From Escherichia phage vB_EcoM_TH18, in sequence record ON075799: 64,000 nt of DNA, one strand, 5' to 3'. Position 1 is the stretch's first letter. Each line of letters begins with the position of its first letter. Below are positions 7,334 through 29,440 of this stretch, piece after piece. The translations under genes were made by a program, and so were the position numbers. The notes beneath the pieces are model-generated. The model worked only from the letters and a program-made list of their open reading frames with translations. It was not told where the DNA came from and ran no database searches.

Positions 7334-7410
7334 ACGAGAGTGAGGAATAGAACCTCTTAGTCACTGGTTTTGGAGGCCAGCCTTCACCCAGTGAAGTTAC
7401 GCTACTCTCA
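7334..7410 (-). tRNA. non-canonical tRNA-like element
   Basis: Good acceptor (TGAGAGT/ACTCTCG) and T-loop-like GGTTCTATTCC, but D and anticodon regions do not fold into standard arms; no encoded CCA. Confidence 0.3.
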
Positions 7411-8327: not shown

Positions 8328-8402
8328 TGGAGCATCCAGAGGGTATCGAACCCTCGACTTCAGCTTGGAAGGCTGTAGTTTTCCCAATTAAACTATGGAT
8401 GC
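8328..8402 (-). tRNA. tRNA-Gly (anticodon UCC)
   Basis: Acceptor GCATCCA/TGGATGC, D arm GTTT/AAAC, anticodon arm (A)CAGC-CTTCCAA-GCTG, T arm GAGGG-TTCGATA-CCCTC, CCA encoded. Confidence 0.75.
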
Positions 8403-8407
8403 ATATT

Positions 8408-8483
8408 TGGTGGGAGTGGTAGGCTCTGCCCCTACGTCCTCTCGATTATCGGTCGAGCGATCTACTAACTGATCTACACTCCC
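8408..8483 (-). tRNA. tRNA-like cloverleaf with Ile-type anticodon GAU but non-canonical D and T loops and C at position 33
   Basis: All four stems perfectly paired, CCA encoded, but D loop AGTTAGTA lacks GG, T loop is GGCAGAG (no TTC), anticodon loop is CCGATAA. Confidence 0.5.
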
Positions 8484-8546
8484 AAACTGTACTGGCCCAA
8501 CAACCACGATTGGAGGGTATCGTCACACATCAAAGCCAGTACAGTT
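8484..8546. other. long perfect hairpin (13-bp stem, ~37-nt loop) between two tRNA genes
   Basis: aaactgtactggc (8484-8496) and gccagtacagttt (8534-8546) are exact reverse complements. Confidence 0.6.
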
Positions 8547-8551
8547 TTAGT

Positions 8552-8641
8552 TGGTGTGCCGTGATAGAGTCGAACTACCCGAGTCCCTTTCGAGACAGGA
8601 GATTTACAGTCTCCCCCGCTACCCCTACGGTCTAACGACAC
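8552..8641 (-). tRNA. tRNA-Tyr (anticodon GUA), type II
   Basis: 90 nt; acceptor GTGTCGT/ACGGCAC (one G-U), anticodon arm GGAGA-CTGTAAA-TCTCC, long variable arm, T loop TTCGACT, CCA encoded. Confidence 0.7.
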
Positions 8642-8642
8642 A

Positions 8643-8990
8643 TTAACCTTGTTTGAATTGAACAATATCCGTCGAGAACGGTTTAGCTGCCTTAATAGGT
8701 GCTTTTTCTGAGTTATCTTTTTCGAGTAACTCTTCGTTTTCCTCATCAAAGTAATCAGAAAGCATCTGCTCACCTTTCTCAATAACATAACGAGCTATAT
8801 TTTCTCTGATATTGTCTTTTGTATTCACATTCTTCATCAAATCCCTAAGAACCTGATGAGCTTCAGGAATCATTGCAATCAGATTCGTTTTTAAATCTAG
8901 GATATTTTTCTCTAACTGAATTGCATTAGATTCCTCTTTCAGAGGACGACCTTTTCCTCTTCTACGTTTTGTAAGCTGCTTAGTAGCCAT
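8643..8990 (-). CDS. hypothetical protein (116 aa, basic N-terminus)
   Basis: Start refined to MATKQLTKRRRGKG; the longer ORF-track N-terminus overlaps the tRNA cluster; sigma70-like promoter just upstream. Confidence 0.5.
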   Translation of the reverse strand: MATKQLTKRRRGKGRPLKEESNAIQLEKNILDLKTNLIAMIPEAHQVLRDLMKNVNTKDNIRENIARYVIEKGEQMLSDYFDEENEELLEKDNSEKAPIKAAKPFSTDIVQFKQG

Positions 8991-9009: not shown

Positions 9010-9039
9010 ATATTATCAAATAAAAACATATCTGTCAAG
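9010..9039 (-). promoter_or_regulatory. sigma70-like promoter (TTGACA, 18-nt spacer, TAATAT)
   Basis: Minus strand reads TTGACA...TAATAT shortly upstream of the ATG at 8990. Confidence 0.5.
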
Positions 9040-9152: not shown

Positions 9153-9228
9153 AATAAGTACCCCAGGTAGAGAACCTATAGAGTGGGTCTTACGAGCCGC
9201 GCTGACGATTCTCAAGTTGGGGTTAATC

Positions 9229-9305
9229 TGGTCGAGGAGACAGGATTCGAACCTGTGACCTACGGCTTAGAAGGCCGCTGCTCTATCCAACTGAGCTACA
9301 CCCCG
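9229..9305 (-). tRNA. tRNA-Arg (anticodon UCU)
   Basis: D arm GCTC-AGTTGGATA-GAGC, anticodon arm GCGGC-CTTCTAA-GCCGT, T arm ACAGG-TTCGAAT-CCTGT, CCA encoded; acceptor has one mismatch. Confidence 0.7.
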
Positions 9306-9505: not shown

Positions 9506-9602
9506 GGCTGGGTGATGGAATCGAACCACCTATGTATTCAACGGCTTCCCCGTCTATTTTCAGGATTATAAATCCTCGCCCTTGCCAAAGGGCTTACCCA
9601 GC
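9506..9602 (-). tRNA. over-long (97 nt) tRNA-like element, anticodon arm ambiguous
   Basis: Perfect acceptor (GCTGGGT/ACCCAGC), D arm GCCC-TTTGGCAA-GGGC, T arm GGTGG-TTCGATT-CCATC; central region has only a 4-bp stem with loop TTTATAA and ~30 extra nt; no encoded CCA. Confidence 0.35.
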
Positions 9603-19158: not shown

Positions 19159-19370
19159 GTTCTCGATCGAAAATTCATTTTCCAGATCGTATTTGCTCCT
19201 TACGGAGAAAATTTTTTAGGGCTACAAGTTTCAGTTCTCGATCGGTTTTTCGATTTCAAAATCGTATTTGTTTTTTCTTGCGAAATTTTTCGCACGCTCA
19301 GTTCTCGATCGAGTTTTCAAAATCGAAATCGTATTTGCTCTATAGTGCGAAAAAATTTTTATGGGTATCA
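19159..19370. repeat. three tandem ~67-75 bp repeats with internal dyads
   Basis: Units begin gttctcgatcg at ~19159, 19234, 19301 and share ...atcgtatttg...gcgaaa; internal palindrome tgcgaaatttttcgca. Confidence 0.75.
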
Positions 19371-19742
19371 TAATTCTATCACACACTTAAACGCAAAGCA
19401 ACATAAAAATTTTTGTTGAATGATAATCATTCTCATTTGCAGAATGACAGGTAGGATCAGTGTCTTATCCTCCCCCGTTGACCATCGTCGCCGTAGTTTG
19501 AAGTTTATAGCCGTTCTCGGCTTATCTCTTTGTTAGAGATAGATTACCATAATTGATAAAGAAAGCAAGCGTTAATTGTAATCTTTACGTTTCTTTACAA
19601 ATTTATTTTAGACAAACTACCGGCGATCGACCTTCCAACCAGCGCCCTGGTATGTTAGCCCCGCCTTTACGCCGTGGGGATGGCGTTGCCTCTTCTGTAT
19701 GTTAGGCATTATAAGCCCAATCCCTGGGCTTGTCAAACATTT

Positions 19743-28779: not shown

Positions 28780-29165
28780 CCCTAACAAACATGATAAGTT
28801 TTATCTATCAAAACACCACACAGAAAGAAAGTGAATAAAACGCGGTATCGAGCTAAACGAGGGTGGGCAATACAACGGCAAGGCTAAACAATTAAGGCTG
28901 TTATAACGCGATTTAGGCCGCTTAAAATCGATCCCCACCACAAACAACACCCACAAAATGACCAAAACGACACAACATGACTTAAATGATAACCATTCCC
29001 AACAACATAAGCATTTTTATGCAATTTGAGTGAATATCTATTTAAATGATAATGACTCTCAACAACAAACTAACACGACCGAAGCGATTCAATCGCCTAC
29101 CACAAAATTAATCACTTGTAAAGAGTAATTTGAAAAAAGCTGCGTAGGTGGCGCGACCGTAGGGA

Positions 29166-29440
29166 GCGACACAATAACGCAGTAGTAGCCCCTCACCCCT
29201 CCTTCCAGTCGCCCCCGGTATCGGGGCAGCGTTATTGTGTCGCTAAGCGACAACGCGTTAACAATTTTGCAAGATTTTATTAATACTTTAACTGTTATAA
29301 TTTTATTGCAAAATTGTTAACCTACTGCGTTATTGTGTCACGTAGTGATTAGTTACATATGTAACTAACAGCTATCACTGCAAAATTGTGTCACGTAGTG
29401 ATTAGCTGAGAATCAGCTAACCCGTAAAACGGGCTAAATT
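29166..29440. repeat. cluster of inverted and direct repeats flanking an AT-rich core (candidate origin or regulatory hub)
   Basis: gcgacacaataacgcagtag at 29166-29185 with reverse-complement copies at 29229-29243 and 29321-29340; 16-bp dyad 29257-29272/29306-29321; direct repeat attgtgtcacgtagtgattag at 29332 and 29385; palindromes gttacatatgtaac and agctgagaatcagct. Confidence 0.7.

Follow-up and report, generated by a model that had tools for sequence, protein, structure and literature searches.

An inter-tRNA hairpin of Escherichia phage vB_EcoM_TH18 and the structured spacers of phage tRNA arrays

The tRNA array and the hairpin within it

The 64,000-nucleotide stretch of the Escherichia phage vB_EcoM_TH18 genome analysed here (sequence record ON075799; referred to below as the window) contains a tRNA array that lies entirely on the minus strand, with 16 tRNA genes called in the window by ARAGORN. 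At the locus of interest the order in the RNA is tRNA-Tyr (GUA anticodon; 8641–8552, called by ARAGORN), which ends in CCA, a four-nucleotide single-stranded linker of sequence ACUA (8551–8548), a hairpin (8547–8484), and a tRNA-Ile(GAU)-like gene (8483–8411, with an encoded CCA that extends it to 8408). The next gene in the precursor, tRNA-Gly (UCC anticodon; 8328–8402, minus strand, found by both ARAGORN and Rfam), starts 5 nt past tRNA-Ile. Upstream of tRNA-Tyr is an open reading frame of 115 amino acids (8643–8990, minus strand; phrog_3330, function unknown) that ends 1 nt before the tRNA gene, and a consensus scan places a putative sigma-70-like promoter ahead of it (TTGACA, 17 nt, TAATAT, with a TG; 9010–9038, minus strand). 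The promoter and the close junction between the reading frame and tRNA-Tyr suggest an mRNA–tRNA co-transcript. The proteins encoded beside the hairpin belong solely to families of unknown function (DUF7338, phrog_3330, and others).

The downstream neighbour, tRNA-Ile(GAU) (8408–8483), was missed by ARAGORN, but it matches the Rfam tRNA model with 53.4 bits against a gathering score of 29 and has a cloverleaf as its minimum free energy (MFE) structure; its homologues in three other loci (L009, L034, and L036) are called as tRNA-Ile (gat) by ARAGORN. It has several unusual features, including a C in place of the near-universal U at position 33 (anticodon loop CCGAUAA), the T loop GGCAGAG, and a D loop that lacks GG. 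Its 21-nt anticodon arm, GCTCGACCGATAATCGAGAGG, is present exactly in tRNAs with unrelated acceptor stems, on 8 IMG/VR and 31 metagenome contigs, and relatives with a non-canonical T loop (AGCAAAG, GGCAGAG) also have a D loop devoid of GG. These unusual loops may be linked to the anticodon-loop changes that evade host tRNA nucleases (PMC10264068). We note also two further minus-strand segments that ARAGORN does not call, a match to the tRNA-Sec model at 7336–7407 (32 bits) and a tRNA match at 9506–9602 (33 bits).

The arms of the hairpin, 8484–8496 (AAACTGTACTGGC) and 8535–8547 (GCCAGTACAGTTT), are exact reverse complements that form 13 perfect base pairs with 38 nt between them, as a first-pass annotation of this DNA had noticed; that annotation ended the element at 8546 with a length of 63 nt, which is one base short, as the right arm runs to 8547 and the full element (8484–8547) is 64 nt. 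In the minus-strand RNA the 5′ arm of this inverted repeat is AAACUGUACUGGC (8535–8547) and the 3′ arm is GCCAGUACAGUUU (8484–8496), the last base of which, 8484, is position −1 of the downstream tRNA. It adjoins G1 of that tRNA at 8483, the end defined by Rfam, and the hairpin was thus correctly described as abutting the tRNA 5′ end. Its arms and loop had also been judged wrong in size for a tRNA arm, and this agrees with the lack of any tRNA match on 8484–8547, either with the Rfam tRNA model RF00005 of clan CL00001 (at E ≤ 1 in a 6.5-kb search, or E ≤ 10 in a 79-nt search) or with ARAGORN.

Folding of the sense RNA places additional structure in the 38-nt interior (8497–8534, minus strand). 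In both the MFE and centroid structures there is a G/U-rich middle helix closed almost exclusively by G·U pairs, and above it an apical 5-bp stem (8519–8523 with 8506–8510) that carries an 8-nt loop, ACCCUCCA, at 8511–8518. Beyond the 13 perfect base pairs these contribute about 10 extra pairs, 6–7 of which are G·U, interspersed with small internal loops, and the sense hairpin is predicted to fold as an irregular, quasi-continuous helix about 24 bp long. Its MFE is −26.0 kcal/mol (z = −4.25), a value that none of 200 shuffled sequences equals, whereas the antisense strand, in which the middle helix cannot form, reaches −22.6 kcal/mol. The window contains six perfect stems of at least 13 bp with loops of no more than 60 nt, the hairpin and five others, compared to 0.095 per dinucleotide shuffle, and the hairpin is therefore not a chance feature. 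At 19351–19414 there is also a perfect 13-bp inverted repeat composed only of A and T, with a 38-nt spacer; its arm and loop lengths are those of the inter-tRNA hairpin, and its sequence is unrelated. A further region, 29165–29400, contains two 16-bp perfect inverted repeats (29165–29180 with 29229–29244, and 29257–29272 with 29306–29321) together with repeated GCGTTATTGTGTC motifs, and looks like a set of iterons or operators.

Several other identities were considered and rejected. The sole match among curated RNA families (Rfam 15) is a truncated one to atpB RNA, with 11.1 bits against a threshold of 37.4 (E = 0.84), which we take to be due to chance. The element is not an intrinsic terminator on the tRNA strand, as the loop is 38 nt, none is called by a terminator scan, and the RNA-strand stem is followed by GGGAGUG without a U-tract, in agreement with the absence of a U-run reported earlier. 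A consensus scan identifies no promoter inside the hairpin, and the open reading frames at 8474–8788 (minus strand) and 8510–8635 (plus strand) overlap tRNA genes and are considered spurious.

Distribution and origin of the hairpin

The hairpin region is 100% identical in Escherichia phages 18-1-2, 19-1-2, and 24-2-1, and 99.6% identical in Av-05 (Vequintavirinae, Avunavirus). A BLAST search of phages with the hairpin alone recovers just five records, all of the Av-05 type, the remaining matches being noise at E = 7; pattern scans of IMG/VR with the arms and with the core recover Av-05 alone, and two contigs (L020 and L024) with the Av-05 version of the hairpin emerge from a metagenome scan that used the neighbouring tRNA as its anchor. 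The only variation is at position 8545, where Av-05 and these two contigs differ in a manner that creates an uncompensated U·U mismatch at the third pair from the base. Because there are no more than two sequence variants, and the single difference between them breaks a pair, selection on the 13-bp stem is not demonstrable.

The hairpin is single-copy in the window, each phage record contains it in one place, and BLAST finds zero copies in 5,426 complete E. coli genomes. These observations, with the recovery of Av-05 only from IMG/VR, dispose of a dispersed mobile palindrome of the REP or MITE kind. An arm-pattern scan of GTDB genomes gave 27 hits, where the chance expectation, estimated at roughly 14, is taken as comparable; about half of these hits are Pseudomonas REP sequences, which have an unrelated G+C-rich core and 10 nt of the arm in common. 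No diverged homologue was found in IMG/VR, in phages, or in the E. coli or GTDB genomes.

In the sister Vequintavirinae the spacer between this tRNA-Tyr and tRNA-Ile is just 6 nt long, either ATTAAT or AAACAA, as seen in Salmonella phage 41 and in several Klebsiella phages (including Mydovirus), and in the Klebsiella Mydovirus genomes the synteny of the reading frame, tRNA-Tyr, and tRNA-Ile is retained, including the same end of the upstream reading frame. The 6-nt spacer of these relatives indicates, by parsimony, that the hairpin is an insertion of about 62 nt in the Avunavirus lineage; no target-site duplication was found at the insertion. Since the relatives have the same two tRNAs without the hairpin, it is not needed for their maturation. 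It had been proposed that the element might be a small structured RNA, with its stem to be sought in related phages; the hairpin is indeed present in Avunavirus phages, but it is absent from all relatives outside the genus, where the tRNAs are 6 nt apart, and this absence argues that it is not a conserved structured RNA. Judged by these sequence comparisons, the hairpin is young and genus-specific, and it is probably dispensable. An IMG/VR phage (L007) has a different structured insert, of 88 nt, at the Tyr–Ile junction.

Structured spacers in other phage tRNA arrays

Hairpins are not confined to this spacer. Among 17 phage loci, 11 of the 48 distinct inter-tRNA gaps of 35–140 nt fold with z < −3, compared to 5.3% of control 80-mers from the window, and a comparison of the two strands in 57 spacers (19 phage loci) finds that of the tRNA-sense RNA stabler than the antisense by a mean of 2.65 kcal/mol (38 versus 18; Wilcoxon p = 0.0013), figures that are to be read with the caveats that some gaps hide unrecognised tRNAs or promoters and that related loci are non-independent samples. 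Long spacer hairpins are present also in rV5-like, T5-like, and Felix-O1-like arrays. For example, a 10-bp stem that encloses 45 nt is found in Salmonella phage 41, located 4 nt past tRNA-Gln and 3 nt ahead of a tRNA-His-like gene, and a shortened form of it, with a loop of 4 nt, occupies the Gln-to-His junction of the Seunavirus KE23 (L047). Comparison of the Gln-to-His hairpins of L001 and L047 shows two adjacent pairs swapped from CA/TG to TG/CA, a compensatory change. Klebsiella Mydovirus phages have an element with an 11-bp stem 4 nt past tRNA-Ile. A fixed offset of 4 nt past the CCA holds for four perfect-stem cases, but it was rejected as a general rule, as the offsets of all spacer hairpins span about 0 to 9 nt.

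The relationship between the TH18 hairpin and these other spacer hairpins is one of analogy, not homology. Local alignments with the inter-tRNA inserts of L007, L009, L001, and L044 score no better than shuffles, and no shared loop motif or sequence was detected with the analogous hairpins in other phages. Nor does the hairpin belong to a conserved motif of the same array described below, as a cmsearch at E ≤ 10 with the model of that motif (model R1, from alignment A2) finds 9153–9229 and not 8484–8547.

This second element, a structured RNA that is conserved and some 70 nt long, lies about 600 nt from the hairpin, between tRNA-Arg and tRNA-Cys (9153–9228, minus strand). Its core is GCGCGGCU(C/G)G(U/A)AA(G/C)ACCCACUC; the apical loop is of the GNRA type, and there are two outer stems. 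The element occurs at differing junctions in the inter-tRNA spacers of Avunavirus, Mydovirus, Seunavirus, a Stephanstirmvirinae-like contig, and three unclassified contigs of 73–90 kb. Compensatory changes are seen at 7 of its 17 predicted pairs, and a search of Rfam with a limit as permissive as E ≤ 10 returns nothing for it. The element has the look of a previously undescribed phage RNA motif, one of greater interest than the hairpin. The two elements are alike in occupying inter-tRNA spacers of the same array, in size, and in having a closing stem near both tRNA ends; they differ in that the GCGCGGCU motif is conserved, with compensatory changes, in at least four named phage groups, while the hairpin is missed by its covariance model.

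An inter-tRNA element of about 74 nt is found in Klebsiella Mydovirus (L009, 4068–4141; also L034 and L036) and in a Stephanstirmvirinae phage (L044, 392–461; also L045). Its 52-nt interior is 94% conserved between the two at different tRNA junctions, and the closing stem is wholly different in sequence, yet still paired; it has no match in Rfam. A conserved 60-nt spacer downstream of a tRNA, mostly from Lys to Asn, is present in seven loci (L008, L009, L034, L036, L047, L077, and L078), and folds as a hairpin but also contains TTGCAA, 17 nt, and TAAAGT. The presence of this sigma-70-like promoter indicates that a conserved inter-tRNA spacer is in some cases an internal promoter instead of an RNA element, and the Lys-to-Asn spacer hairpin of Mydovirus and Seunavirus, which overlaps it, was dropped as evidence for conservation.

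In soil metagenome loci (L014, L016, L019, L031, L035, L038, and L040) many inter-tRNA spacers of 60–130 nt are near-perfect hairpins of about 15–30 bp. Several are built of repeat units of about 7 nt, with z from −7 to −14 and no asymmetry between sense and antisense strands, and the sequence varies among contigs at the same tRNA junction. We have found no description in the literature of inter-tRNA hairpins in phage arrays.

Possible roles of the hairpin

The hairpin belongs to a known kind of element, the structured spacers of tRNA operons. The interpretation that we favor, tentatively and short of conviction, is that it is a self-contained structured spacer in a polycistronic pre-tRNA, acting in cis and removed during processing. 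The proposal that it might be a processing or stability element thus survives insofar as a cis-acting pre-tRNA element is the most reasonable reading, but neither RNase III nor RNase E, the enzymes that had been named, is singled out. In the scheme that we infer for transcription, cleavage, and role, a precursor containing the reading frame, tRNA-Tyr, the hairpin, tRNA-Ile, and tRNA-Gly would be transcribed from the minus strand, with the hairpin folding on itself; RNase P would cut at +1 of tRNA-Ile, leaving the 3′ end of the hairpin at 8484, the base of the stem; an endonuclease, which by analogy with the maturation of tRNAs in E. coli would be RNase E or RNase P, would sever the ACUA linker to free the 3′ end of tRNA-Tyr; and the hairpin would be released as a by-product of about 64–68 nt. 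Its role in cis would be structural, keeping the inserted RNA from mispairing with the adjacent tRNAs and from being exposed as naked untranslated RNA.

Modelling of the precursor supports such a passive, insulating role. In the MFE structure of the 149-nt interval from tRNA-Tyr to tRNA-Gly, the hairpin and the tRNA-Ile cloverleaf remain separate domains. With the native hairpin in place the cloverleaf pair probabilities are 0.83 for tRNA-Tyr, 0.88 for tRNA-Ile, and 0.91 for tRNA-Gly, identical to those with the hairpin deleted, whereas with 200 shuffled spacers of the same composition the mean for tRNA-Tyr is 0.50, half are below 0.5, and 2% match the native value, this in silico test being one of thermodynamics that leaves modification and co-transcriptional folding aside.

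The processing of E. coli tRNAs offers the closest parallel. RNase P cuts every tRNA 5′ end there and can separate polycistronic tRNAs unaided, and RNase E or RNase P cuts 1–7 nt past the CCA, ahead of the trailer hairpin (PMC2190699, PMC4176162, PMC5291269). In proK, proL, proM, leuX, valU, and lysT, the trailer or spacer hairpins are removed endonucleolytically just past the CCA (PMC5291269, PMC4176162, PMC2190699). These hairpins start, like that of TH18, a few nucleotides past an encoded CCA and their removal requires that RNase E or RNase P cleave a short linker, as is predicted for the phage hairpin; release of the downstream tRNA by RNase P, as in the polycistronic E. coli operons, is likewise predicted here. 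The E. coli hairpins differ, however, in being Rho-independent terminators with short loops and U-tracts at operon ends, whereas the phage hairpin lies within the array, encloses a structured interior of 38 nt, lacks a U-tract, and adjoins the following tRNA with no spacer between.

Several points count against the spacer interpretation, including the uncompensated variant at 8545. A perfect 13-bp stem exceeds what mere foldedness needs; the ACUA linker is a poor RNase E consensus site; and a stem that reaches position −1 should hinder RNase P and not help it. The three basal A-U pairs may need to fray to admit the enzyme. A stable stem extending as far as −1 is an obstacle that RNase P and RNase E have to get past at this site.

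With similar reserve, we see the hairpin as plausibly one instance of a recurrent habit in phage tRNA arrays, and not as a conserved trans-acting RNA. By itself it matters little, being a young insertion that illustrates the amount of structured filler tolerated by a phage tRNA operon. The wider pattern is more useful, in which hairpins on the sense strand are enriched in phage inter-tRNA spacers and some are conserved with compensatory changes; it suggests that tRNA arrays carry extra processed RNAs, or obligatory punctuation for folding and processing, that annotation pipelines ignore.

A second explanation, unlikely in our estimation but with several points in its favor, is that the hairpin is a functionless palindromic DNA insertion, arising perhaps as a template-switch product or as the scar left by a mobile element or a homing event, which is tolerated because it folds on itself and is removed with the spacer. 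Its restriction to one genus with an ancestral state that lacks it, the perfect arms that fit a recent event, and a sole variant that breaks a pair without compensation would all be accounted for, and the ancestral spacer ATTAAT of the Klebsiella phages is itself palindromic. However, neither a second copy (in the window, the phage collection, IMG/VR, or the E. coli genomes) nor a target-site duplication accompanies it, the middle helix of G·U pairs forms solely on the sense RNA, and phage inter-tRNA spacers as a group are enriched for hairpins and better folded on the sense strand.

Cleavage by RNase III is also to be considered. Substrates of this enzyme of the T7 R1.1 type comprise roughly two helical turns and may contain an internal loop. 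The TH18 hairpin has in common with these sites and with the hairpin before the T4 tRNA-Gln a length of about 60 nt, a series of lower stem, internal loop, and upper stem, and a location between two functional RNAs. If the host enzyme cut the helix of about 24 bp, it would part tRNA-Tyr from tRNA-Ile, with exonucleases and RNase P trimming the short tails, and it would remove a blunt 13-bp hairpin trailer that would otherwise stop 3′ exonucleases. The 13-bp lower stem, internal loops, and upper stem of the phage hairpin resemble the T7 sites in size and layout, and the T4 hairpin, of 11 bp, is about 11 nt upstream of tRNA-Gln, where a cut by RNase III has been reported. The TH18 helix is nonetheless interrupted and partly G·U, the element is not conserved, and relatives process the same tRNAs without it. 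We consider an RNase III site distinctly unlikely.

We give little credence to a broader proposal, that the hairpin, together with the GCGCGGCU motif and the element shared by L009 and L044, belongs to an undescribed class of non-tRNA cassettes that are released as discrete small RNAs by the enzymes of tRNA processing and have roles in trans in the infected cell. One end of each would be set by RNase P, and the released RNAs could be decoys for RNA-targeting host defences or an anti-Shine-Dalgarno mimic; a parallel is provided by a herpesvirus, in which RNase Z frees pre-miRNA hairpins that are linked to tRNAs.

It is somewhat more doubtful still that the hairpin is by itself a discrete, stable small RNA, released by RNase P as are the non-tRNA RNAs of the T4 cluster and acting in trans, with its CCUCC loop pairing with Shine-Dalgarno sequences or the RNA titrating a protein. 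E. coli yields small RNAs from tRNA spacers, such as 3′ETS-leuZ and the ITS fragments, which are Hfq-dependent sponges with defined complementary seeds; the likeness is that an RNA cut from a pre-tRNA spacer could persist past processing, whereas no target or Hfq-type features are identified for the phage hairpin. The predicted processing sites flank the hairpin precisely, its blunt stable stem should resist exonucleases, and the apical loop ACCCUCCA contains the anti-Shine-Dalgarno core, but the window contains the extended 12-nt complement of the loop no more often than expected (6 matches versus 5.8), and anti-Shine-Dalgarno targeting was rejected. Conservation outside the one genus is absent, there is no Rfam match, and the analogous hairpins of other phages share neither its sequence nor a loop motif. 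RNAC and RNAD of T4 are further non-tRNA segments in a phage tRNA array, co-transcribed and co-processed with the tRNAs and of unknown function (PMC3014915). They are spaced comparably, 1 and 6 nt from their neighbours in the T4 record, the phage hairpin having 4 nt upstream and 0 nt downstream. They are, however, multi-branched RNAs of 119–139 nt, with a tRNA-like T arm in RNAC, whereas the TH18 element is a single 64-nt hairpin with another fold and no T arm, and is absent from sister genera.

That the hairpin is a terminator or attenuator, in which a 10-bp core stem followed by TTTTAGTT on the plus strand would stop antisense transcription that enters the tRNA array and the minus-strand structure would pause RNA polymerase, is very improbable: the plus strand does read GCCAGTACAGTTTTAGTTGG after the stem, but the loop is 38–44 nt, the consensus scan finds no terminator here, there are no evident plus-strand genes nearby, and the tRNA strand has only three U residues past the stem, all of them paired.

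A larger type of inter-tRNA RNA is found in three other loci (L005, L036, and L007), in spacers of 132–134 nt that lie either between tRNA-Glu and the next tRNA or between tRNA-Trp and tRNA-Gln. Although ARAGORN does not call it, this RNA is tRNA-like and multi-branched: a stem of 8–9 bp closes it, three or four hairpins lie inside, and its 3′ end reads CACCA.
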